Under the pieces are notes generated by a model. That model was not told the origin of the DNA, made no database searches, and saw only the letters and a program-made list of their open reading frames with translations. Positions 9,065 through 41,304 of a stretch of DNA of 51,567 nt are shown piece after piece; position 1 is the first letter of the stretch; each line of letters opens with the position of its first letter. The stretch is from Candidatus Aenigmatarchaeota archaeon. Its GTDB lineage: Archaea > Aenigmatarchaeota > Aenigmatarchaeia > GW2011-AR5 > JACRAC01. The position numbers were made by a program, and so were the translations under genes. The stretch spans positions 117,976-169,542 of the forward strand of contig JAWCMQ010000001.1 of NCBI GenBank assembly GCA_039091255.1, given 5' to 3'.

Positions 9065-12000
9065 CTATCGAAACCACGTGGGCGGAGAAAATAGCTTTGC
9101 GGCGTTTACCGAATTCAGCGCGTCGATGATGCGTTGCAACTCAAGATTTCCGCCAGGCAGATAGGAAGAAACATGGACATCGGTAACCGTGCACGAATTG
9201 CCGTCACCGTCGCCTACAGGCATGCTCCAGTGAGATTCCAGAACGACGCCAAAGTCTTTATCGTCTACAAATATGCTGTTGAAGTTCTGTTCGTAACTTC
9301 CATAAACAGGCAAACTTTTGGTGCCATCAGGAGAAGTAATCAGGATATGGTCAGACCGAACTTGTATCAAGGCACCATTCGAGGCGATCAGGATGCTATT
9401 TGAGTTGAGGGCATATTTGCCGTCCCTCACATAAGTTCGCGGCAGGCACGATAACTCCGAATTTCCTGGGAAATCGGCGACTCTGCATTCCGCGGGGTGA
9501 TGATACGCATAAAATTCCGTATCTATACATGGCGAACCTACCTCCTCAGCCTCGTCCACAAGCATAAGGACTAATGTTCCAGCTTTGCTGAGTAGGAATC
9601 GAAGTGGAAGAAACAATGTCCCGACGAGCGATGCCGCACCGCGCTTACTTGCGAATATTGACAGTCTTGAACCTATGATGCTCAAAAGTTTGACATACGA
9701 GCTCTTTGACAAAATAAGCTCTTCGGGTGTGTAAGCGCTCAGAACCTCAGCGACCGAGGGGGTGAGTTTCGTAGGAATAATTTCCTTGATGACGTTGTCC
9801 GTAACGCTGAAGAAGCGCCCACCGTAATTAAAGACATGAGCGTCGAACGGCTTCCTTCCGGCTACATTTCTGATGATGTTGGCATGAGGGATGACGCGGC
9901 TTCCAGAAGGCACACCGAAAAGATTTTCGGGTATACCTACCTCGCCCATGTGAGTCTGAAGGAATGTAATACCATACTCTTCGAGAACTTTGCGATCGGC
10001 GGAGAGAAGTTTGAAGGTTAGAAATCCTGTGGAGCTCAGGAAGATCGAACCTGGTGGATAATCGGTGCTGACCGCTTCGCCATACTCGCAATCGGTTTCG
10101 CATTCGGGTTCAGATTCAGAAGCTTCAATGCAAGTTATGCTGCAATTGTAATACTCTAAAGATATGGAAGGCGCGGTGTGCTCATAATCGAGAATTCTCC
10201 CGCTAGCTTGATCGTATATGCTAAGCAAGGCGCTATAGCTTCCGCGTGCTACATCATCCGGAATCTTGAATTCTCGCCAATACCACGCCTCTCCTGGTAG
10301 CGCCCAGACTGTGAGCGCATTAGCTGGGTCGCTATAGCGCACTAATCCATCTTCACTTATCAGCTCCCCGTCGAGCACGACCGGGTATAAGTTGTCATGC
10401 GGATTCATGATGCGATAGCGGATGGTAAATGAGTCTCCCGGACCTAATGTTGGGTTTCTGGGATCAAACTCCCACCCGGAGATATCAAGAGATTGGGAAG
10501 GCATGGCAGGAAGCTTCACAAGCAAATTGTTCCCATTCGCATCCTGGATATGGAAGTCGTCGACAAAAACCTTGCCCCATCCGGTAGCTATGCTGTCCAC
10601 CACATAGATGTAAACTGTCTTGCCAACGTATTGAGACAGGCCGGTACAGTACTCTTCAAAGAACACATCAGTGGCGCGGAGGCTGGTCACCGAGCAGATA
10701 GTAGAATCATCGGACGCATCCTTAAGGAAAACACCGCTCCCGCCGCCCCCTCCGCCTGCTCTCAGGTACCTGAGGCGGTATGCGCCTTCCGGCAGTATGA
10801 AATCAGCAGAGCGCATTGCACCCATTCCGTTGTTTCCGCCAAGATATGCATAATTTGCGCCTTGAAAGTTCTCGCCCTTGCAGACGAAATCGACGCCGTC
10901 TATTCCCACGCCGACCGATATGCCGGGCGAATTGCCCGTTCCGCTCAGCACGGTCCAGTTTCTGGGGTCGATCCTTTCGCTGCAGCCGCTTATCACGGAA
11001 TCGGCTTCGAAATCGTGATTTGGAATCTCAACCCCTTCTCCGAGCGACTGCTGAGGAGATGAAACCTGAAACGTTTTTGCGGCGCACGAACCGCCGCTAC
11101 CGCTATCCAGGCATGCTTTTATCGTGTGAGGACCTATAGAAAGGGCGTATAGTAAATTATGGTTGTCGGTGTATGACGCTTTCGGCGCTATCGGGGATGC
11201 TATCAAGACGCTTTTTACATCATAGCCGTCGATAGAAACGGTATACGCTGGAGATATGTCGCTACAGCGATTATTCGTGACGGTAACTGAAAATTTCACG
11301 CCATTAACGTCGCCGTAAATTTTATCGATGCCTATCGCCGGTTCAGACGGAACGCATGACGGAACCGGCATGGCGGTCCAGCTTTTGGCGGCCCATGGTC
11401 CATCCCAATATGTGTAGCTGCTGGATCCGCCTGTGCCGCCATCGCAGTGATAACGCACTCGGAACTCGCCTGCGCGTGACTGCAGAGTGGAATCTCCTAC
11501 TCCCATGAGCATGCTCTGTGTCACCGAAAACGATGCGCCTACCTGCACAGTGCTCCCGCGGGATCGCGACCCTAAAGGTATGCGCTCTGCCGTGTTGCCG
11601 TCGGAATCTAGGGAACCTGCGGCCTCTGCGTGCTTGTAAATCACAGCCTCGCAGCTGGAGTATTGCAGATGAGGACCGCCTATGGAGCCTACTGCCGTGA
11701 ACTGGACGGTTTCGCCTACGGTATACGAGTCTTTGATACCGCTTACAGTCGGCGCTTGGGCATCCGGCTCGCATTTGTTGTTTATGCACACCCAACCGGA
11801 ATCGCAGGGCGGATTGGAGTAATCGCATCCGTCAAGCTTGCTCAAGCTAAACGTTATTGTCTGCTCGGGCGGAACGGTTGCGCTGACAGTCGAAGATTTG
11901 TAGCCCGTTTTGGTAGCCGTAACCGCATAAGTTCCGGCAGGGAGCGATTGGATTGTGCACGCGTACCGCACTCCGTCCCAACCTGTCGTGCAGGATTTCC

Positions 12001-12625
12001 CTGACGTGGATACGAGAACACTGTCTACGTTGGTTATTGCCATTATTGAGTAGGTGGAAGGTCCAAAAACGTTCACCGTCCTCTCCCTTACCGGCCAACC
12101 TTGCTGGTCAGTCGTTCCTGATGATGGATCCCGCTGGCAGGAGCTGAAATCGCTATTGCACAATGCCGCTCGAAAGTATATCGAAAGAGTTCCGCTAGCC
12201 CCGGCTTTGGGGCGGGCCACAACAGACACGGTTTTTCTTGTATTGGACGACCAGCTCCCGGAAAACTCGACTAGCGGGTAACTGGCCTTTATAGCCGCCC
12301 CGTTTTTGTCGTATATCGAATCTCCCGCGCGGTAAAGTTTGCCGGAGCCGAGATCTCCGCTCCAGGAAACGACGTCCCAATTCGGAAATGAAAGCGAGAT
12401 GTAGCCGTTCGGGTAGCTGCTGCCCGTGTTGTCGTAGCTGACTGTTATGTTCGTCGTCTCATCTGCGTTTATTGTGCTTGGTGACGTGCCGCTGCTGACA
12501 TAGATTATGGCACCAAAGGACGGGCATGCCAGAAGCGAAAAAGCCGCGAAGAATAACAGAACTTTTAGAGAATGAGAAGTAGAAAGACGCGAACCGCGCA
12601 CGGAAATGCGATCGCAGTAACCCAT
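9065..12625 (-). CDS. large secreted multidomain cysteine-rich protein, function unknown
   Basis: 1186-aa uninterrupted ORF. It has an N-terminal signal-like LKVLLFFAAFSLLACPSFGA, beta-rich repeats, a TYAVTATKTGYKSSTVSATV carboxypeptidase-regulatory-like segment, many Cys pairs and a Gly6 run. One hydrophobic stretch (GAASLVGTLFLPLRFLL...TLVLMLV) lies about 200 aa from the C-terminus. Confidence 0.7.
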   Translation of the reverse strand: MGYCDRISVRGSRLSTSHSLKVLLFFAAFSLLACPSFGAIIYVSSGTSPSTINADETTNITVSYDNTGSSYPNGYISLSFPNWDVVSWSGDLGSGKLYRAGDSIYDKNGAAIKASYPLVEFSGSWSSNTRKTVSVVARPKAGASGTLSIYFRAALCNSDFSSCQRDPSSGTTDQQGWPVRERTVNVFGPSTYSIMAITNVDSVLVSTSGKSCTTGWDGVRYACTIQSLPAGTYAVTATKTGYKSSTVSATVPPEQTITFSLSKLDGCDYSNPPCDSGWVCINNKCEPDAQAPTVSGIKDSYTVGETVQFTAVGSIGGPHLQYSSCEAVIYKHAEAAGSLDSDGNTAERIPLGSRSRGSTVQVGASFSVTQSMLMGVGDSTLQSRAGEFRVRYHCDGGTGGSSSYTYWDGPWAAKSWTAMPVPSCVPSEPAIGIDKIYGDVNGVKFSVTVTNNRCSDISPAYTVSIDGYDVKSVLIASPIAPKASYTDNHNLLYALSIGPHTIKACLDSGSGGSCAAKTFQVSSPQQSLGEGVEIPNHDFEADSVISGCSERIDPRNWTVLSGTGNSPGISVGVGIDGVDFVCKGENFQGANYAYLGGNNGMGAMRSADFILPEGAYRLRYLRAGGGGGGSGVFLKDASDDSTICSVTSLRATDVFFEEYCTGLSQYVGKTVYIYVVDSIATGWGKVFVDDFHIQDANGNNLLVKLPAMPSQSLDISGWEFDPRNPTLGPGDSFTIRYRIMNPHDNLYPVVLDGELISEDGLVRYSDPANALTVWALPGEAWYWREFKIPDDVARGSYSALLSIYDQASGRILDYEHTAPSISLEYYNCSITCIEASESEPECETDCEYGEAVSTDYPPGSIFLSSTGFLTFKLLSADRKVLEEYGITFLQTHMGEVGIPENLFGVPSGSRVIPHANIIRNVAGRKPFDAHVFNYGGRFFSVTDNVIKEIIPTKLTPSVAEVLSAYTPEELILSKSSYVKLLSIIGSRLSIFASKRGAASLVGTLFLPLRFLLSKAGTLVLMLVDEAEEVGSPCIDTEFYAYHHPAECRVADFPGNSELSCLPRTYVRDGKYALNSNSILIASNGALIQVRSDHILITSPDGTKSLPVYGSYEQNFNSIFVDDKDFGVVLESHWSMPVGDGDGNSCTVTDVHVSSYLPGGNLELQRIIDALNSVNAAKLFSPPTWFR

Positions 12626-33594: not shown

Positions 33595-34584
33595 ATGGGC
33601 CGAAAGTATGCGAAAATCCGCTTAGCGCTGCCCATCGGCAGCCTGAACCATCCCAAAAGGGGGAACACCTGCGAAATATTCCAGCGCGCCGGTTATGCAA
33701 TTCGTGGCTATGACCCAGGTCTTGAATCCCCAAAACCTGCCATAGCGGACCATCCTGAAATCGAGCTTTCTGTTGGCAGGCCGCAGGACTTCCCGCGCAT
33801 GCTCGCGAAAGGCCAGTATGACATCGCAATCATGGGAGAAGATTGGTTCAGGGAAGTCCAGAATCCCGGCGTAAAGAAAATCGGAGACCTCGGATACGGA
33901 AATGTTACGATTGTTGCCGCTGTAATCACGTCTGCGCCCTACCGCTCGCTTGGCGAATTCTTTTCGAAAAACCAAAAGGGCGTAGAATGTTATACAGAAT
34001 ATCCCAATCTGACAAAGCGATGGTTCATGTCCGAACGCGAATATAAGCGCGCGTTCGGCAGAGCAGCACCTGTTATCGAGATGCACGGCTATGAAACCTC
34101 TGGCAGGAACAAAAAAATCCGCATAATAGAGACAGCAGGCCAAACAGAAGGGTTCGTAAGACGCGCCGACCAGATTATGGTAGACAACATTCAGACAGGC
34201 GAAACGCTAAAAAAGCATAGGCTGAAAGTGCTTGCGACGCTTATGGAATCCCAGGCAGGACTTTACAAAGGTCCGACCTGCACGGACGATAAGGAAAGGA
34301 AGGCAGAGGAGATTTTCAAGATGCTTAGAGGCGCTGCGGTTGCCAAAAGCTACTATGACGTGTGGTTTAATACGCGAAGCGATGCGACTAAGAATATCAT
34401 CGAATATCTCGAAAAAGAAAGGCTATGCATCGCTGAGCCGACTATCATACCGCCTCAGGTTGGTCAGAAGTATGCCTCCGTGCACATCCTGGCACCCAAA
34501 GATAGGTGGGCGAACTGCGCACCTCGCCTGTGGAAGCTTGGCGCAGAAGGGATAGTCGTCACCCAGCCGACACAGGTAATATAG
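33595..34584 (+). CDS. ATP phosphoribosyltransferase-like protein (HisG fold, long form)
   Basis: IRLALPIGSL N-terminus, DIAIMGEDW, ...ADQIMVDNIQTGETLKKHRLKVL (near-match to the HisG TGxTL signature), and a C-terminal regulatory-like domain. No other his genes are in the window. Confidence 0.6.
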   Translation: MGRKYAKIRLALPIGSLNHPKRGNTCEIFQRAGYAIRGYDPGLESPKPAIADHPEIELSVGRPQDFPRMLAKGQYDIAIMGEDWFREVQNPGVKKIGDLGYGNVTIVAAVITSAPYRSLGEFFSKNQKGVECYTEYPNLTKRWFMSEREYKRAFGRAAPVIEMHGYETSGRNKKIRIIETAGQTEGFVRRADQIMVDNIQTGETLKKHRLKVLATLMESQAGLYKGPTCTDDKERKAEEIFKMLRGAAVAKSYYDVWFNTRSDATKNIIEYLEKERLCIAEPTIIPPQVGQKYASVHILAPKDRWANCAPRLWKLGAEGIVVTQPTQVI

Positions 34585-34587
34585 CAG

Positions 34588-35094
34588 ATGCGACACCGGC
34601 TATCCCGAGCTAAAGAGAAGGCTGAGATTATGCCCTTCCCAAAGGCCATCACCGCAAAGATTTTGGAATTGGACGTCTCGCAATGCAACACATACTTCGC
34701 CACTCAGAGGCTGGTGGAGCTGCTTAGGAAAAAGCGCCTGTTTCACCCAATATATCTTTACCGCGGGACAGACGAGCAGGAGATATGGCTCATGGCTGGA
34801 GCCATCAAGAATGCCGCTAGGAACGTCGAAGGCGCAGCCGGCGATTCGATAGAATGCTACACCGCCAAGGACCTCCAGGAAATCGCCAACGACTCGAGCG
34901 ACCGGATAAGCCCCATCACCTACGCAATAGACAACGCCAAGCGCGGCGATTCGCTGTCCGACGACCCTGTCATTGCCGTTCTTAAGGCCAGCGAACTGGA
35001 GTATGCGGGAGAGCGCTCAAATTATGAGTATCGGTTCAAGCGCCCAAACGAGAAGCTGCGGGCGCTTGCGGCGGTGGTGCGCCTGAAATTCTAG
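34588..35094 (+). CDS. hypothetical protein, likely co-transcribed with the HisG-like gene
   Basis: 168-aa ORF whose ATG lies 4 nt after the HisG-like stop. No family recognised. Confidence 0.5.
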   Translation: MRHRLSRAKEKAEIMPFPKAITAKILELDVSQCNTYFATQRLVELLRKKRLFHPIYLYRGTDEQEIWLMAGAIKNAARNVEGAAGDSIECYTAKDLQEIANDSSDRISPITYAIDNAKRGDSLSDDPVIAVLKASELEYAGERSNYEYRFKRPNEKLRALAAVVRLKF

Positions 35095-35117
35095 AAAAGA
35101 ATGCGCAAGCGGCGCCA

Positions 35118-35936
35118 TCACGGCGCAGCGGGCACGTAAGGCAGATACGTCACCCAGTGCCATGCATCGGGCAAGAGGTCGGCATTGCCAGCGGCGTCCA
35201 CCGCGCGGACACGCATGACGTGCGCACCCCATGCTAAGCCCGTGTACGTCTTCGGGCTCGTGCAGACCGAGAAAGCGCCGCCATCCAAGCTGCATTCGAA
35301 ATGGTCTAGATCCTTGTCGTCGCTGCCTACGAATGAAAATGATACGCTGGAAGATGGGGAAATCCCTCCATTCGGAACATAGCGGCCATCTTCATCGACT
35401 GCGAAAGTTGTTTCTGTTTCAGGCGGCACATTGTCCTTGTTAAAGAACGTGCAATTGACATAATCGCCCTCGTCGACGTACACCTCGACAGTCCGCGCGC
35501 TGATGTTTATTAGTTGAGTCGATGGTATGAGTTCTGTGCAGTTTATGTCCACAAGTTCCCAACCCTCCGGAGGCCCCTCCTCCGTGATGTTGTGCAAGCC
35601 TTCAACCACTGTAACCTCAGTGCAATTGCTGTAAGTCGAATCGATTCCGCCGTCGTCATCCAACGTGAAATCTCCAAACGTTGTGTTGAAGTTAAAGTCC
35701 TGCGGATCCTGCGGCGTGCTGTTCTTGCAAACTTTTATAACCGAAACCGCAGGCGTCGGCGTAGGCGTAGGCGTTGGCGTTGGCGTTGGGGTCGGCTCCT
35801 GTGCGGATGCGACATTGTTGCCAGCAACGAAGGCAATAAGCAGCAGTGCCACGACCAGCACAGCGGCGGAGGGTGCCGAAGAACCTGCCTTTCTGATAGA
35901 AGTACAGGCCATTGCCAACACGCACCTTATGTACAT
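35118..35936 (-). CDS. secreted/anchored protein with (Thr-Pro)8 linker and beta-sandwich domains
   Basis: N-terminal hydrophobic signal/anchor (AAVLVVALLLIAFVAG) and linker EPTPTPTPTPTPTPTPTPAV. A prealbumin-like segment (VCKNSTPQDPQDFNFNTTFGDFTLDDDGG) follows. The Ig-like C-terminal domain has FECSLDGGAFSVCTSPKTYTGL...VRAVDAAGNAD. Confidence 0.7.
   Translation of the reverse strand: MYIRCVLAMACTSIRKAGSSAPSAAVLVVALLLIAFVAGNNVASAQEPTPTPTPTPTPTPTPAVSVIKVCKNSTPQDPQDFNFNTTFGDFTLDDDGGIDSTYSNCTEVTVVEGLHNITEEGPPEGWELVDINCTELIPSTQLINISARTVEVYVDEGDYVNCTFFNKDNVPPETETTFAVDEDGRYVPNGGISPSSSVSFSFVGSDDKDLDHFECSLDGGAFSVCTSPKTYTGLAWGAHVMRVRAVDAAGNADLLPDAWHWVTYLPYVPAAP
35752..35796 (-). repeat. hexanucleotide tandem repeat (GGCGTN)n encoding the (PT)8 linker
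   Basis: ggcgtcggcgtaggcgtaggcgttggcgttggcgttggggtcggc on the plus strand. Confidence 0.8.
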
Positions 35937-36059
35937 ATAGTTTCAGCGCATGGCTTAAAGATATCCAAGGCGGCAGAACCGGTTGGGCGGGAGCGCAGGA
36001 GCAGGCTTGAGAAGGCGAGAGCTGGCTCGGCTTTTAAGCGTATTTGCGCATGTAAGTGC

Positions 36060-36734
36060 ATGCTTTCCCTTATTCTTCCCATCTATAACCAGGCATGCGA
36101 GCTGAAGAAAAACTTCACGAGGATTGTCACCGAACTTGAGAAGGCAAAAAAATCCCGGAAGATTCCATACGAAATCCTAATCGTCGAAGAGAGCATAGAT
36201 AGCACACCAGAAATTGCGCAGCAACTCGAAAAGAAATATCCCTTCGTCCGCCACTTTCACTCGGACATCCGTTTGGGAAAAGGCGGCGCGATTATGCTCG
36301 GCATCAGAAAAGCAAAAGGCGAGCTCGTGGCTTTCACGGACATCGACCTTGCTGCGGACATTGCGGAATTGCCGAAATTCATTGATGCTCTCAAGAACAA
36401 CGACATCGCTGTAGGGCTAAGGATTGCTAAGCGAAGCCTACATAGAAAGCTTCTCGGCAGCGCTTATGTCGCGCTGTGCCGCCTGATGTTCGGCATTCCT
36501 GTTCGCGACCTCCAGTGCGGCTTCAAGGTGTTTCGCCGCTCGGCCGTCGTGCCGCTCCTTCCGCGCATCAAAACCGCATCGTTTGTCTGGGATACGGAAT
36601 TTTTGCTGCGAGCGACACAAGCAGGGCTGCGAATCGCCGAGATTCCCGTAGCCTGGCAAGAAACGAGCAAGCTCACAAAAGCGCATATGAGAATGCCGCT
36701 CGAGCTGATATGGCTCTGGTTATCCGATTCATAG
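36060..36734 (+). CDS. GT2 glycosyltransferase, polyprenol/dolichol-phosphate hexose synthase-like
   Basis: MLSLILPIYNQ start, GKGGAIMLG, FTDIDLAAD (DxD-like), DLQCGFKVFRR and WDTEFL, typical of the Dpm1/Alg5/AglD-like GT2 family. ATG at 36060. The upstream part of the track ORF is antisense to the previous gene. Confidence 0.8.
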   Translation: MLSLILPIYNQACELKKNFTRIVTELEKAKKSRKIPYEILIVEESIDSTPEIAQQLEKKYPFVRHFHSDIRLGKGGAIMLGIRKAKGELVAFTDIDLAADIAELPKFIDALKNNDIAVGLRIAKRSLHRKLLGSAYVALCRLMFGIPVRDLQCGFKVFRRSAVVPLLPRIKTASFVWDTEFLLRATQAGLRIAEIPVAWQETSKLTKAHMRMPLELIWLWLSDS

Positions 36735-36737
36735 TCA

Positions 36738-38414
36738 TCATCCGATTCTTCTCAGCACCACAAATTTGTGCTGCTCGCTGATGTGAGACTCATTAATCTC
36801 GCGGAAAAGCCAGAATCTCCAGTTCGCCAGGTTCTCAGCCATCCGTGCCTCGTGAGGATAATAATACCACACACGCCAGTTCTCAGTGCTGTAATTGTTT
36901 GCGATGTCCGCTGTCAAATTTTTTATGGCCTCGGGATCTGCAATGGCAAGCTGCTCATCAGTCAGCAAACTGCTTACGTTCGACTTGTAATGCCTCATAA
37001 AAATGTAGAATGGCTGCGTGCCGTAGTTTATGCTTTTGCCCTCGAGAAAAGCGATGCGTTCGCCCGATTCAAGACGAGAAACAACTTCCTGCATAAGCCC
37101 TCGGACATCCTGCGGTATCTGCACGTATTCCATAGGCTCACGCACGTCGTTAAAGCGCACGTAGTTGAGGCCGAACGTCGTATACAGATAGAACAGCATC
37201 AGCGGAATCAGCGCAACCGCTATGATTTTTCTCCCTGGGAAGTTTTTCTGAGCGAAAACGTCCGAAATGAACAGCGACGCAATAACAAGAAGCGGCAAAA
37301 GCATATGCATCGTGACCTGCGGCTGCTTCTCACCGACAAAAAGCGAGTAGATTGCCAGTGCCGCAGCAAACCAGTATATGAGAAATGCCGTTTCAAATGA
37401 ACGCTTTCGCCTTCTCAGGTAATAAGCGATACCCGCTATGCCGAAAGCGAGGACAGGTAGCTCGTAAAGCGCCATCCGGAAAAGATAGTAATGCGGCGGA
37501 CCTGCTATGCCGCGAGACGTCCACGTTGTAATCGCTTTCACGACCGGCTCGTATATCGGCGTCTGCAGCGCAAAGAACGAAGAAAACAGCGTTGCGTATA
37601 TCCAAATCGCGATGACGCCTGCAGCAAAGAGGCTGGCCACAGGCTTGGAAAAGTGCCTGTACGCCATGCGCGCAGATAGCATGAGCACAATAGAAAAGCA
37701 AAGCAGCTTGGCAGCAGGATGCAAATTCGACATGAGGGCGGCGTGAGAGAAAGTGAGTACAACCGCAAGCAGCATCGCACTCTTCAGCACAATGACTGGT
37801 GCGGAGAGATTGAGTTTTCTCGCTCGGATTTGCGGCAAGAAGTGCCAAATGAGCAGGAATGTCGCAAAGATGAATATCGTTATAAGCGTATTTTCCATGT
37901 CCGCGAACCCGAGAGAAAGTGCCGCAAATGCACCGAACAGCCACCTGTCCCGCTTTGTGCGGAAGTAAAGCATCAGAGATATGAATGCGAACAAGCTGAA
38001 AAAAACCGCATGGATGTCATTGCGATAGAAGCGCGAAAACCAAAGAAAAAAAGGCGACACTGCTAAAAAGAAAGCAGCAACGATGGCTGTGATCTCTCCC
38101 TTGTCGCTCCATATCATTCGGAGATATAGCGCCAACCCCACTAGCGCAATCCCAAAAATAGCCGGAACAAGCCTGAACGTGACTTCCGAAAACCCTCCAA
38201 GCGCGAGAAACGGTGCCGTGAAAAAGACCGGAAAAGGCCCGTGGTAAACTGGATCGTATTTATGCGCGCCTGTCTCGAGAAAACTCTGCACGTACCATAC
38301 GTGCAGCCCCTCATCCCAGTTGTAGAATCGCTCATCGAGGCTGTACAAGCGAAGCCCCGCGGCAAGGATAAGGATGGTAGCAAATGCGATGCAGAATTTG
38401 CTGCCTTTGTCCAT
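36738..38414 (-). CDS. GT-C fold glycosyltransferase, PMT_2/ArnT-like (TIGR03663/Agl23-like)
   Basis: 558 aa and about 12 TM helices. The first-loop acidic motif is YNWDEGLHVWYV...YDPVYHGPF, and there is a soluble C-terminal domain. Confidence 0.65.
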   Translation of the reverse strand: MDKGSKFCIAFATILILAAGLRLYSLDERFYNWDEGLHVWYVQSFLETGAHKYDPVYHGPFPVFFTAPFLALGGFSEVTFRLVPAIFGIALVGLALYLRMIWSDKGEITAIVAAFFLAVSPFFLWFSRFYRNDIHAVFFSLFAFISLMLYFRTKRDRWLFGAFAALSLGFADMENTLITIFIFATFLLIWHFLPQIRARKLNLSAPVIVLKSAMLLAVVLTFSHAALMSNLHPAAKLLCFSIVLMLSARMAYRHFSKPVASLFAAGVIAIWIYATLFSSFFALQTPIYEPVVKAITTWTSRGIAGPPHYYLFRMALYELPVLAFGIAGIAYYLRRRKRSFETAFLIYWFAAALAIYSLFVGEKQPQVTMHMLLPLLVIASLFISDVFAQKNFPGRKIIAVALIPLMLFYLYTTFGLNYVRFNDVREPMEYVQIPQDVRGLMQEVVSRLESGERIAFLEGKSINYGTQPFYIFMRHYKSNVSSLLTDEQLAIADPEAIKNLTADIANNYSTENWRVWYYYPHEARMAENLANWRFWLFREINESHISEQHKFVVLRRIG

Positions 38415-38500
38415 GCAGTAAATTTATATGGCGCCTCTAAATAAAGCCGGCCGCATCGTGGAGTTTTTTAACGCCGAAAACAATTGTTTAGAGATGCAAA

Positions 38501-40381
38501 ATGATAGGCCTGCTGCTAATTCTGCTTGCTTGCTACATCGGCGTGCTCGCTGCGCGTGGTCTGACCTGTCTGACGTTGCTCGAGCGCTCACTGATCGGCA
38601 TCATCGCGGGATTCCTGATTGCCGCATGGTCGCCGTTCCTCATTTACATCGCGGTGTGGGACCTGGGAATCGCTTGCTCGGCGGCGCTCGCCGCTCTTGC
38701 AGTCATCGCCGCCGTCGCGACGAGAAGATTCGGCATAAGGCGGAAAGACTTCGAGCAGGCATTCGGCCTTGTGCGCAAATCGCTGATGCGAAATCGCCTT
38801 CTACTCATGTTTTTTGTCACGCTCGCGATTTTCTTCACGCTGATTTTCTCCTCGCACATGGCTGAGCCGCGCCCGGACGGCATCTATACGGGCGCTAACG
38901 GCGCATATGGGGATATCCCGTTTCATATGACGCTGATAAACCACTTTCAATACGGCTCAGGCACGCTTGAATACCCGATTTATGCCGGCGCCCGCCTGAC
39001 GTATCCATTCATCTTCGATTTCTTCACCGCTGCGCTTTCGGGTCCAGGCATGCTGGGGCTTAGGGGAGCGATGATGGCATCCTCGTTGATGCTCGTGATG
39101 CTGCTTGTGCTATCCATCTACGCGCTGGCGCTCCGGTTCAGCCAAAGCAAGCGCGCAGCCATGCTTGCCGTGGCGCTAGTCCTCATCGGAGGAGGCTTTG
39201 GATTCGTTCACTACATTGGCGATGCGGCTCAAAGCGGCAATCTTGCTGTCACAAAAGATTACGGCCACTATACTGAGGTGGGAATACACTGGTCTAACGT
39301 AATCGTCCAGTATCTTATCCCCCAGCGAACGCTTCTGCTAGGATTTCCAGCAGGCATCGCGATTCTGCTGCTGCTCTTTGCGGGCTTCGACCAGAGGCGC
39401 GCAACGAACGGCGCAAAGCGCCATCTTGCACCTGCCGGATTTATCATGGGCGCTCTTCCGCTGGTTCACACGCACGTGTTCTTTGCAATCGGAATCGTCT
39501 CTGCGATGTGCGCAGCCGCATACGCCTCGCGCGCATGGCTTCGCTTCTTCCTGCCCGCGTTTTTGCTTGCTTTCCCGCAGGTCATGTGGATTCTTCCGCG
39601 CGCAGCTGGAGAGGGCTTTATGCGCATCCAGCTAGGATGGCTAAGCCGCGCTTCTGGCATGGCAGACTTCGCGCATTTCTGGCTCCTTAACGCAGGCATG
39701 CTATTGGTGCTCGGCTTGGCATGGTTTGTGGCAGAGCGTGAAAGCCATAAGCTTCAGAAGGCATTCATGCTTTCGTTCTGGCTTATCTTCATAATGTCCA
39801 ACATAGTCGCTTTCCAGCCGAACGATTATGACAACATGAAAATTATGCTTCTGTGGTGGCTTGGCATCAGCATAGCATCAGCCACGCTCATCGCTCGCAT
39901 GCTCGAAAAGGGGGCGCCATGGAAGATCCTTGCGGCATGCCTCGTCGCTTTCTCGGTGCTCACAGGTGCGCTTAGCGTTTATCACGAGTATTGCCAACAC
40001 CATCGCATCTTTTCCGCTGAAGACATCGAATTCGCGGAATGGCTGAAAGCGAACACGCCGCACGATGCCGTCTTCCTCACGTCTGACATGCACAACCATC
40101 CCGTGCCTGCGCTTGCAGGCCGCACAGTCGTTCTCGGATATGGCGGATGGATATGGAGCCATGGCCTCGCGCTGTCAAATCGGAGCGCGGACGTAAAGGA
40201 GATGCTGGCCGGCGGCGCTAGGGCGATGGAGCTGCTCGAAAACTACGGTGTCGACTATGTTGCAATCGGTTGGCACGAGCGGCGAAAAGGCGCGAACGAA
40301 ACCTACTTCGCGGAGAACTTCAACCTCGTCTACAACACAAGCACTTACATGGTATTCGATGTTTCGGGCGCGCCTAGCTAG
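38501..40381 (+). CDS. polytopic membrane protein, putative GT-C-type glycosyltransferase (family unknown)
   Basis: 626 aa with 13 or more TM helices. It has an early loop YGDIPFHMTLINHF...YPFIFDFF and a C-terminal soluble domain (...VVLGYGGWIWSHG...). The assignment rests on architecture and context only. Confidence 0.45.
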   Translation: MIGLLLILLACYIGVLAARGLTCLTLLERSLIGIIAGFLIAAWSPFLIYIAVWDLGIACSAALAALAVIAAVATRRFGIRRKDFEQAFGLVRKSLMRNRLLLMFFVTLAIFFTLIFSSHMAEPRPDGIYTGANGAYGDIPFHMTLINHFQYGSGTLEYPIYAGARLTYPFIFDFFTAALSGPGMLGLRGAMMASSLMLVMLLVLSIYALALRFSQSKRAAMLAVALVLIGGGFGFVHYIGDAAQSGNLAVTKDYGHYTEVGIHWSNVIVQYLIPQRTLLLGFPAGIAILLLLFAGFDQRRATNGAKRHLAPAGFIMGALPLVHTHVFFAIGIVSAMCAAAYASRAWLRFFLPAFLLAFPQVMWILPRAAGEGFMRIQLGWLSRASGMADFAHFWLLNAGMLLVLGLAWFVAERESHKLQKAFMLSFWLIFIMSNIVAFQPNDYDNMKIMLLWWLGISIASATLIARMLEKGAPWKILAACLVAFSVLTGALSVYHEYCQHHRIFSAEDIEFAEWLKANTPHDAVFLTSDMHNHPVPALAGRTVVLGYGGWIWSHGLALSNRSADVKEMLAGGARAMELLENYGVDYVAIGWHERRKGANETYFAENFNLVYNTSTYMVFDVSGAPS

Positions 40382-41304
40382 GCCTTCTTCGCCATGCAGA
40401 GCATCGCAATCCCGCCAAACACCGTGCCGTACCAGAAAGTCAGCGCTCGCGCAAGAAAAACACCCGAAACCGCAACGGCCGCTGATACGCCCAACTGGAT
40501 TAGCATCAGCGTCAGCACAGCTTCTGTCGAGCCAAGGCCTCCTGGCAGCGTGCTTGCATAGCCGATTATTACAGAAAGCGCGAAGATGGATACTGCGGCA
40601 AGAATCGGCAGCTCCACGCCCAGTGCAGCAAACGTAATCCAGAGAATTGCTCCATCGAGAACCCAGACCGCAAACGTGAAAATGAGCGAAAGCATGATGG
40701 AAACGCTTCGGATTTTGCTCGCATAGAACGTTTGCACAAAATCATCGCCTATTCGGTTTAGGAGCGGCAAGCGCTTCGTCGCCCCCAGGACGGCAAATCC
40801 TGCGCGCTTGCATCGCAGCACTGCCATCGCGATAGCAAGCAGGATGCAAAAAATAGAAACTCCTACGAGCCCGGCTACGCTTCCCACCGTCCCAAGCGAC
40901 ACCGCCCAGAACCCAGCGATCGCTAGAGCGACCATAACGGTGGCATCAAGCATCCGCTCCCAAATTATAGCCGGCAGGCTCGCAGAAGCAGGAATGCCCG
41001 TTCGCTGCTTGAGAAAAAGCGATTTCACGGGTTCGCCCATTTTTCCAGGCGTAAAGTTTCCGACCGTCATGCCAGCAAGCTGCGTCAGCGCGGCATCCGC
41101 AAAGCCGAGCCCTTTTATCAAGACCTTCCACTTCAGGACGCGCAGAAATGTCACAGCGCTCGATAGGCAAAGCGCCGCAGCGAGCAGAGCCGGATTTGAC
41201 TGCGCGACGATCGAAATCAGCAAATCAGGCTTCGCCCACATTGCGACAGCAGCGAGGATTCCCAAGCTCAACGTCAGCATGACGGCCTTGAATAGCCTGC
41301 GCAT
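40378..41304 (-). CDS. flippase-like / lysyl-PG-synthase-TM (UPF0104) family membrane protein
   Basis: About 8 TM helices. The FLRVLKWKVLIKGLG...GNFTPGKMGEPVK pattern resembles TIGR00374-type proteins, which are commonly paired with GT2 enzymes. ATG at 41304. Confidence 0.65.
   Translation of the reverse strand: MRRLFKAVMLTLSLGILAAVAMWAKPDLLISIVAQSNPALLAAALCLSSAVTFLRVLKWKVLIKGLGFADAALTQLAGMTVGNFTPGKMGEPVKSLFLKQRTGIPASASLPAIIWERMLDATVMVALAIAGFWAVSLGTVGSVAGLVGVSIFCILLAIAMAVLRCKRAGFAVLGATKRLPLLNRIGDDFVQTFYASKIRSVSIMLSLIFTFAVWVLDGAILWITFAALGVELPILAAVSIFALSVIIGYASTLPGGLGSTEAVLTLMLIQLGVSAAVAVSGVFLARALTFWYGTVFGGIAMLCMAKKA

Follow-up and report, generated by a model that had tools for sequence, protein, structure and literature searches.

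A candidate dolichyl-phosphate-hexose glycosylation module with two GT-C-fold membrane proteins in a Candidatus Aenigmatarchaeota genome

Gene arrangement at 35118–41304

The window analyzed here is a 51,567-nt stretch of contig JAWCMQ010000001.1 (positions 117,976–169,542; assembly GCA_039091255.1) from a Candidatus Aenigmatarchaeota archaeon. Its positions 35118–41304 hold five adjacent genes, which an earlier note, made from the sequence, had read as a candidate protein O-glycosylation module next to a surface protein with a Thr-Pro (TP) linker. All five open reading frames (ORFs) exist at these coordinates, and the same genes were called independently on four further contigs from this organism, two from NCBI metagenome-assembled genomes (GCA_039090995.1 and GCA_039090635.1) and two from sequencing runs (SRR27730040/42). 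The start of the TP protein differs slightly in those calls (274 aa vs 272 aa in the window). The observation made earlier is confirmed and its interpretation is partly supported: four of the genes, coding for a glycosyltransferase family 2 (GT2) protein, two membrane proteins with the fold of C-type glycosyltransferases (GT-C) and a flippase-like protein, are considered here as a candidate module for glycosylation from a dolichyl-phosphate (Dol-P) hexose donor. The features of the locus are as follows, with the basis of each in brackets.

35118–35936, minus strand: TP protein, a secreted or anchored neighbor of 272 aa; a possible client rather than an established component of the module
35751–35795, minus strand: P(TP)7 linker, residues 48–62 of the TP protein (translation checked)
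35937–36059, no strand: divergent intergenic region between the TP gene and the GT2 gene (read from the sequence)
36060–36734, plus strand: putative GT2 polyprenyl/dolichyl-phosphate hexose synthase of the Agl22/Dpm1/ArnC class, catalytic domain only, 224 aa (PF00535)
36738–38414, minus strand: predicted GT-C-fold membrane protein of the TIGR03663/Agl23 family, 558 aa (TIGR03663, AF2 model)
38310–38315, minus strand: DE dipeptide (D34, E35) in the first extracytoplasmic loop of the Agl23-family protein (invariance in the family)
38415–38500, no strand: divergent intergenic region between the Agl23-family gene and the second GT-C gene (read from the sequence)
38501–40381, plus strand: second predicted GT-C-fold membrane protein, remote DUF2298/TIGR03662 homologue, 626 aa (AF2 model, hhalign)
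38912–38926, plus strand: loop after the fifth helix of the second GT-C, with invariant D138 and H142 (family alignment)
40378–41304, minus strand: UPF0104/LPG_synthase_TM/TIGR00374 flippase-like protein, 308 aa (PF03706, TIGR00374)
35735–40890, no strand: segment absent in the collinear relative L092 (blastn collinearity)

The strand order of the five genes is −,+,−,+,−. Because the strands alternate, the genes do not form an operon and are taken as five separate transcription units, arranged around the two short divergent intergenic regions and two tail-to-tail junctions. In the first intergenic region, an A/T-rich element (CTTTAAG / CTTTTAAG) located ~25 nt upstream of both start codons resembles a TATA box; in the second, similar A/T-rich elements are present on both sides. 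From the sequence, both readings as TATA-like elements are inference only. At the convergent ends, the GT2 and Agl23-family genes lie 3 bp apart (36734–36738), and the second GT-C and UPF0104 genes overlap by 4 bp (40378–40381). Neither junction has space for a terminator, and overlap of the convergent transcripts is therefore obligatory.

The GT2, GT-C and flippase-like proteins

The protein encoded at 36060–36734, described in the earlier note as a Dpm1/Alg5-like GT2, was upheld as a GT2 of the Dpm1/ArnC class. It matches PF00535 (E = 9.5e-20), and its top PDB relative is the Dol-P-Man synthase (DPMS) of Pyrococcus furiosus (5mlz, 2.6e-13), followed by ArnC (3e-7). A DID sequence of the DxD type at residues 94–96 aligns with the DAD of DPMS. 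No transmembrane segment was detected in the protein (maximum KD19 hydropathy of 1.37). Alignment with NF041391, the model for the haloarchaeal dolichyl-phosphate hexose transferase to which Agl22 presumably belongs, is near full length (residues 22–205 vs model positions 13–189 of 213) and scores 39 bits, below the equivalog cutoff of 375. Based on the PF00535 match, the DPMS and ArnC relatives, the DID motif and the NF041391 alignment, this GT-A catalytic domain is assigned by class to the polyprenyl-phosphate sugar synthases (DPMS/ArnC/GtrB). A longer ORF beginning at a TTG codon (35514–36734) was rejected, as the alignment to DPMS already begins with the second residue when translation starts at 36060, and gene callers choose this start too.

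The protein encoded at 36738–38414 had been proposed to be a PMT_2/ArnT-like GT-C enzyme with a DE motif in its first loop. The fold and the motif were retained in the present analysis and the PMT assignment was not. A match to TIGR03663, the family model named earlier as a check, was obtained at 259.8 bits (cutoff of 126.25; residues 10–477 vs model positions 3–431 of 435). The NCBI name of this model is "flippase activity-associated protein Agl23". Only weak and partial Pfam matches were observed to PMT_2 (32.8 bits) and to PMT (PF02366, 29.2 bits), the latter restricted to profile positions 74–212. The protein does not match PMT_4TMC, the MIR domain or the protein O-mannosyltransferase (PMT) model NF058602; by contrast, the true PMT encoded at a related locus (L086) matches both PMT_4TMC and NF058602. 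Judged by these profile comparisons, the Agl23-family protein is not a PMT/GT39 enzyme.

To compare both large proteins with known structures, AlphaFold2 (AF2) models were searched with Foldseek, and in each case only GT-C enzymes were returned. The model of the Agl23-family protein (predicted local distance difference test (pLDDT) of 89, predicted template modeling score (pTM) of 0.91) matches AglB (1e-8), Pmt4 (1.6e-7) and ArnT (5e-7), as well as STT3, PglB, ALG12 and ALG9, with no significant PDB match outside the GT-C glycosyltransferases. As modeled, this result shows a complete GT-C fold in a family currently annotated as "flippase-associated". Residues ~420–558 make up a C-terminal domain that is presumed to lie outside the membrane. 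Across 28 family sequences, R22, D34, E35, H58-G59-P60, R81, R128 and K363 are invariant. The D34-E35 pair aligns with the "PDEGRY" sequence of the catalytic loop of ArnT (5ezm) and is presumed to be the catalytic acid pair of a GT-C transferase. Both large proteins of the locus fit the general GT-C pattern of a polytopic fold whose first extracytoplasmic loop carries an acidic residue and whose C-terminal domain lies outside.

The relationship of this protein to haloarchaeal Agl23 was assessed using a Halogeometricum plasmid copy found through PLSDB, rather than Agl23 of Haloarcula hispanica itself. The N-terminal 205 residues are 30% identical to this NCBI-annotated Agl23, and hhalign joins the two proteins with a probability of 99.5% over 469 columns, with the DE and HGP motifs common to both. 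The profile search for family members returned no haloarchaeal sequences, and no reference genome holds an Agl23 homologue above ~30–40% identity to the window protein. Two additional predicted helices, contributed by an insertion of ~48 residues (residues ~205–255), set the window protein and P0002, its closest relative, apart from the other aligned members.

The second large protein (38501–40381), listed earlier as a polytopic protein of unknown family, remains without a model in the Pfam and NCBIfam libraries (no match at E ≤ 0.1, including PF10060 and TIGR03662), and sequence searches of the PDB and of plasmids returned nothing. Its identification comes from fold and profile–profile comparison only. 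The AF2 model (pLDDT of 87, pTM of 0.91) matches the C-mannosyltransferase DPY19 (5e-9), AglB (6e-8), STT3, PglB, AftA and ArnT. When compared using hhalign with the DUF2298/TIGR03662 proteins of Methanomicrobiales, a probability of 99.4% was obtained (E = 1.3e-21, 466 columns), which makes this protein, at the level of sequence profiles, a clear remote homologue of the DUF2298/TIGR03662 (Chlor_Arch_YYY) family. In the same alignment, "YPF" is found where DUF2298 has the "YYY" of its YYYxG motif. D138 and H142 are invariant in the family of the second GT-C, and their loop is the counterpart of the conserved acidic loop in DUF2298. This family comprises 2702 clusters at 50% identity with E ≤ 1e-30 and 4747 at E ≤ 1e-10. 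Its relatives (P0049–P0273) come from archaea and bacteria, and its many bacterial members are all annotated as hypothetical. Because it is large and yet has no Pfam or NCBIfam model, this DUF2298-related GT-C clade may merit a family definition.

For the protein encoded at 40378–41304, the proposed flippase-like UPF0104 identity was upheld by matches far above the cutoffs: PF03706 at 146.9 bits (E = 1.1e-42; threshold of 33.4) and TIGR00374 at 124.7 bits (E = 5e-36; cutoff of 43.2). Weaker matches were found to the models for MprF and the GlcN-PG flippase. Eight hydrophobic segments are present in this member of the LPG_synthase_TM/TIGR00374 family, which is proposed by analogy to be the translocator of Dol-P-hexose.

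Recurrence of the gene set and the place of the TP protein

To determine how often the four families occur together, one genome per species was scanned with a profile of the eight closest Agl23-family sequences, and 10-kb flanks were retrieved, giving 80 loci. Among the Methanomicrobiales loci with enough downstream flank, 20 of 39 have GT2, UPF0104 and DUF2298 genes within 10 kb of the Agl23 gene. At the Methanoculleus sediminis locus (L020), an operon of FAD oxidoreductase, GT2, LPG_synthase_TM and TIGR03662 (511 bits) genes lies 4 kb from the Agl23 gene. In Methanomicrobiales the UPF0104 homologue is encoded between the GT2 and DUF2298 genes, and in Chloroflexota directly after TIGR03663. 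One Chloroflexota locus (L063) encodes a double-length TIGR03662 protein, a TIGR03662 protein, a TIGR03663 protein and a TIGR00374 protein consecutively on one strand, with no GT2. Linkage of synthase, flippase and GT-C genes is thus conserved in these archaeal loci, and operons are seen at L020 and L063. Since the four families are repeatedly linked across two domains of life, 36060–41304 can be treated as one functional module despite its strand arrangement.

Each of these relatives has features of its own. At L020 (14955–19853) and similar Methanomicrobiales loci, the operon starts with an overlapping gene for an HpnE/phytoene-desaturase-like FAD oxidoreductase (PRK07233, 461 bits), and a CetZ tubulin gene stands between this operon and the Agl23 gene. 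This oxidoreductase, which hints at a lipid-modifying step, is not matched by any gene of the window. Agl23 genes form tandem pairs in 10 of the 11 bacterial loci, most of which are from Chloroflexota; examples of these tandem paralogues are found at L063 (2995–12655) and L002 (11873–14653). One Chloroflexota protein of 1537 aa joins an Agl23-like N-terminal region to TIGR03662 domains, and a paralogue of 927 aa carries a C-terminal NHL/ScyF-like extracellular domain that could be an acceptor-binding module. On plasmid pHBOR02 of Halogeometricum borinquense (L091, 8980–11351), the NCBI-annotated Agl23 gene overlaps a downstream GtrA-family gene and has two GH18 chitinases and two PKD-domain proteins as encoded neighbors. 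By analogy, this Agl23 and GtrA pairing resembles the classical layout of a GT-C with a small flippase.

The closest relatives of the window proteins lie beside other glycosyltransferase genes. The gene for the closest Agl23 relative (48% identity) adjoins genes for a PMT_2/GT22-type GT-C and a GT2. The closest relative of the second GT-C is encoded directly after a true PMT + PMT_4TMC gene (L086), and another close relative (L087) lies in an operon of PMT_2, GT2, PMT_2 and second-GT-C homologue genes. More distant relatives of the second GT-C neighbor O-antigen-type ABC transporter, GT1 and methyltransferase genes (L088) or a GT87 mannosyltransferase gene (L090).

A natural deletion of the module is observed in a related archaeon. 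The metagenomic contig L092 is collinear with the window from the Rpo4/L21e/Pus10 side to the HisG/ROK side at 73–81% nucleotide identity on both sides (blastn). In the interval that differs (window 34503–40890 vs L092 2835–3181), it lacks window positions ~35735–40890 (~5.2 kb), a segment that includes the 5′ end and linker of the TP gene, the GT2 gene, the Agl23-family gene, the second GT-C gene and most of the UPF0104 gene. At the junction, codon ~131 of the UPF0104 gene is followed by 12 nt of filler and then by codon ~68 of the TP gene, just past the linker. A second gap takes out the rest of the TP gene together with a 168-aa ORF. The remnants indicate that the deletion occurred in the L092 lineage; such a module must be dispensable or variable, and its loss was accompanied by decay of the TP gene. 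The module is a presence/absence polymorphism between related archaea, and its absence as one block counts in favor of reading the enzyme genes as a unit. A mobile-element origin of this difference was rejected, as the window has no tRNA and the segment is not flanked by direct or inverted repeats beyond short matches at chance level; no integrase was seen among the window ORFs scanned.

The surrounding genes are archaeal housekeeping genes, including those for class I LysRS, AspRS, Nre, Pus10, L21e, Rpo4, DUF655, RNase HII, HisG and a ROK kinase. The 168-aa ORF (34588–35094, plus strand; 154 aa according to gene finders) lies between HisG and the TP gene and has no Pfam match. A 1186-aa ORF at 9065–12625 (minus strand), with a weak CarboxypepD_reg match as its sole hit, may encode a large surface protein and a further candidate glycoprotein client.

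The TP protein was described earlier as carrying a (TP)8 stalk. A TP stalk and an N-terminal hydrophobic segment are indeed present, and the linker reads PTPTPTPTPTPTPTP, or P(TP)7, with seven Thr and eight Pro residues rather than eight repeats. It is the sole run of TP type in the window. Beyond its single hydrophobic segment, the protein has a SpaA_4 prealbumin-like domain (PF24514, 30.3 bits), a weak Ig-like match at the C-terminus and eight cysteines. A type IV pilin-like signal was rejected by inspection, because the sequence surrounding "RKAG" departs from the class III signal pattern. Residues 72–161 (35454–35723) contain seven NxS/T sequons, three of which are N-C-T, and the sequon density of the protein is the highest among window ORFs of at least 150 aa. 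This pattern suggests that the prealbumin-like domain is heavily N-glycosylated and makes the TP protein at least as good a candidate for an N-glycoprotein.

The tie between the TP protein and the module is weak. TP/SP-rich runs occur within 10 kb at 7 of 86 related loci, some of them in unlikely (spurious) reading frames, and none was found at L001, L086 or L087, the loci that hold the closest relatives of either GT-C. The clearest TP neighbor (L007) is a generic PKD/Big_2 surface protein. Conserved adjacency to TP-rich secreted proteins, as would be expected of a dedicated enzyme–substrate locus and as the earlier note had suggested checking, is thus not observed. Of the self-contained set of synthase, flippase, transferases and substrate envisaged there, the four enzyme genes do look like one module and the substrate next door is not conserved. 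The joint loss of the TP gene and the module in L092 is compatible with a functional tie, and any contiguous deletion would give the same result whatever the function of the genes. At best, the P(TP)7 protein would be one client among several rather than a partner reserved for the module.

Proposed function and relation to known systems

The genes at 36060–41304 probably, though with only modest confidence, encode a four-protein Dol-P-hexose glycosylation module acting at the outer face of the membrane, a divergent copy of the recurring set of GT2, TIGR00374, TIGR03663 and TIGR03662/DUF2298 genes. In a first step, based on homology, the GT2, which lacks transmembrane segments, would use a nucleotide sugar on the cytoplasmic side of the membrane to load dolichyl phosphate with a hexose. 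The UPF0104 protein would then carry Dol-P-hexose to the outer leaflet, as the analogy to the MprF flippase and the gene linkage suggest; because flipping is the reported activity of Agl23, the Agl23-family protein may contribute to this step. Finally, the two GT-C proteins would transfer the hexose from Dol-P-hexose to acceptors outside the cell. By analogy to the H. hispanica Agl22/Agl23 pathway, the most likely acceptors would be glycans or Ser/Thr residues of secreted or surface glycoproteins. In that pathway, Agl22/Agl23 reportedly provide Glc- or Gal-P-Dol for an N-linked trisaccharide and for an O-linked Glc-Gal disaccharide of the S-layer glycoproteins (PMC11182771, citing Lu et al. 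2020; PMC9943897).

Several points weigh against this proposal. The sugar, lipid carrier and acceptor have each been assigned by inference, and the sequence fits O-glycosylation, N-glycan decoration and a non-protein acceptor alike. What has been published for Agl23 is flippase activity on a lipid-linked oligosaccharide rather than glycosyl transfer (PMC11182771). With a score of 39 bits vs a cutoff of 375, orthology of the GT2 to Agl22 is not shown. The second GT-C falls below the TIGR03662 and PF10060 thresholds and is without the YYY motif. About half of the Methanomicrobiales Agl23 loci have no partner genes within 10 kb, distant relatives of the second GT-C are found in polysaccharide clusters or alone, and the genes in the window are separate units on alternating strands rather than an operon.

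Four other accounts of the locus were considered. One is decoration of N-glycans at the outer face, in which the GT-C proteins would add a terminal or branching hexose from flipped Dol-P-hexose to a glycan already transferred by AglB. Parallels are the AglD/AglR/AglS step of Haloferax volcanii and the Glc branch of the H. hispanica N-glycan, and the layout of GT2, flippase and GT-C matches the AglD/R/S logic. The sequon-rich TP neighbor, with its seven sites in 90 residues, also fits this account, and Agl22 and Agl23 are reported to be required for N-glycan as well as O-glycan synthesis (PMC11182771). Against it, neither AglB nor other agl genes are present in the 51.6-kb window. A weak objection is that Methanoculleus marisnigri has a homologous cluster, whereas the components of its N-glycans described in a review (PMC11407970) are uronic-acid derivatives, with no mention of a hexose. 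Overall, N-glycan decoration is a possible but somewhat unlikely explanation.

A second account takes the Agl23-family protein to be a flippase or scramblase and not a transferase, leaving the DUF2298-like protein as the sole glycosyltransferase and the UPF0104 protein with another or a redundant role. In its favor, HhAgl23 was reported to flip M5GN2-PP-lipid when purified and placed in proteoliposomes and to suppress the yeast rft1-delta mutation (PMC11182771), and the NCBI family name reflects flippase activity. However, the Agl23-family protein is modeled with a complete GT-C fold and a C-terminal extracytoplasmic domain, and the invariant DE, HGP and Arg/Lys residues stand at GT-C catalytic and phosphate-binding places, a pattern that a pure scramblase would hardly account for. 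Genes of dedicated flippase type also accompany the Agl23 family (UPF0104 here, GtrA in Halogeometricum). This explanation is tentative and, on balance, rather doubtful.

A third account, in which the acceptor is a membrane lipid, lipoglycan or envelope polysaccharide, as with ArnT, Aft/Emb and GtrC, is considered unlikely. ArnT, AftA, AftD and Emb are significant structural matches, relatives of the second GT-C adjoin the O-antigen-type transporter cluster and the GT87 gene noted above, relatives of the UPF0104 protein flip modified lipids (MprF and GlcN-PG flippase models), and the Methanomicrobiales operon is led by the HpnE-like, phytoene-desaturase-family oxidoreductase. In opposition to these points, experiments on the Agl23 family have dealt only with protein glycans (PMC11182771), PMT-type genes accompany the closest relatives of both GT-C proteins, and no polysaccharide export or polymerase genes are present in the window.

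The fourth account is close to that of the earlier note, namely that one or both GT-C enzymes place hexose from Dol-P-hexose on the Thr residues of Thr-Pro linkers and that the P(TP)7 protein is the cognate substrate. An O-glycosylation reading is plausible by analogy, because a role of Agl22/Agl23 in N- as well as O-glycans has been reported for H. hispanica (PMC11182771 and PMC9943897), and the genes for assembly of archaeal O-glycans and the attaching enzymes are still unidentified (PMC10384203). Also in its favor are the DE loop motif with the PMT/PMT_2 similarity, the protein-modifying enzymes Pmt4 and DPY19 among the top structural matches, the true PMT gene ahead of the closest second-GT-C relative, the divergent promoter region common to the TP and GT2 genes and the loss of the TP gene with the module. 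Nevertheless, this dedicated form is quite improbable, given the rarity of TP/SP-rich neighbors, their absence beside the closest Agl23 relative, the occurrence of TP linkers in generic archaeal surface proteins, the exclusion of the Agl23-family protein from GT39, the equally good structural matches to lipid- or polysaccharide-modifying GT-C enzymes (ArnT, AftA and ALG12), the N-sequons of the TP protein and the fact that neighbors vanish together in a contiguous deletion. A broader possibility, itself unlikely, is that the TIGR03663 and DUF2298-like GT-C proteins are the missing archaeal (and also Chloroflexota) Dol-P-hexose:protein O-hexosyltransferases acting on Thr/Pro linkers, with UPF0104 as the real flippase and the flipping by Agl23 a side property of its lipid groove.

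The favored proposal, a Dol-P-hexose module working on outer-face acceptors, makes the candidates for outer-face hexosyltransferases concrete and mutable (D34/E35 and D138). It also draws attention to the usual company of the Agl23 family, namely a distinct flippase-like gene and a second GT-C whose very large family has no curated model. The window is one divergent example from an uncultured organism and holds no direct evidence on the acceptor; the gain is a sharper hypothesis on the Agl23 and DUF2298-like families.

Compared with Agl22/Agl23 of H. hispanica (Chen et al. 2024, PMC11182771), the window has the same kind of pairing, of a putative GT2 synthase of hexose-P-dolichol with a TIGR03663 polytopic protein, which in H. 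hispanica uses or translocates that lipid for N- and O-glycans of surface proteins. In contrast, the window protein is ~30% identical to the Halogeometricum Agl23 in the N-terminal third only, the GT2 is far under the haloarchaeal equivalog cutoff, and a UPF0104 flippase-like gene and a second GT-C are added. The uncharacterized TIGR03662, TIGR03663, TIGR00374 and GT2 clusters of Methanomicrobiales and Chloroflexota link the same four families. Unlike these clusters, the window has in place of the DUF2298 partner a remote relative that fails both models and is without YYY, has its genes packed into 5.2 kb on alternating strands instead of a co-directional operon, and is without the HpnE-like FAD oxidoreductase. 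In the GtrA/GtrB/GtrC, ArnC/ArnE-F/ArnT and Haloferax AglD/AglR/AglS systems, a GT2 polyprenyl-phosphate sugar synthase, a flippase and an outer-face GT-C act together. The window follows the same logic, and its proteins match ArnC and ArnT directly in sequence or structure; the differences are a flippase candidate of the MprF type (LPG_synthase_TM) rather than of the GtrA, EmrE-like or Wzx type, and the presence of two GT-C proteins. With the PMT (GT39) enzymes and Dpm1/Ppm1 of eukaryotes and actinobacteria, the locus shares a presumed lipid-phosphate-hexose donor, the GT-C fold and the first-loop DE, and Pmt4 is a top structural match, whereas the PF02366 match is partial (29 bits) and PMT_4TMC, MIR and NF058602 matches are lacking. 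AglB, STT3 and PglB are the best Foldseek matches of both GT-C proteins; however, the TM-scores are 0.37–0.52, the identity is 10–15%, the window proteins are much smaller than AglB, and, in agreement with the earlier note, no WWDYG or other WWD[YWFN]G-type motif is found in the six frames of the window. Relative to the characterized systems, the new elements are the MprF-type flippase candidate, the two GT-C proteins and the origin of the second of these from a family without a curated model.

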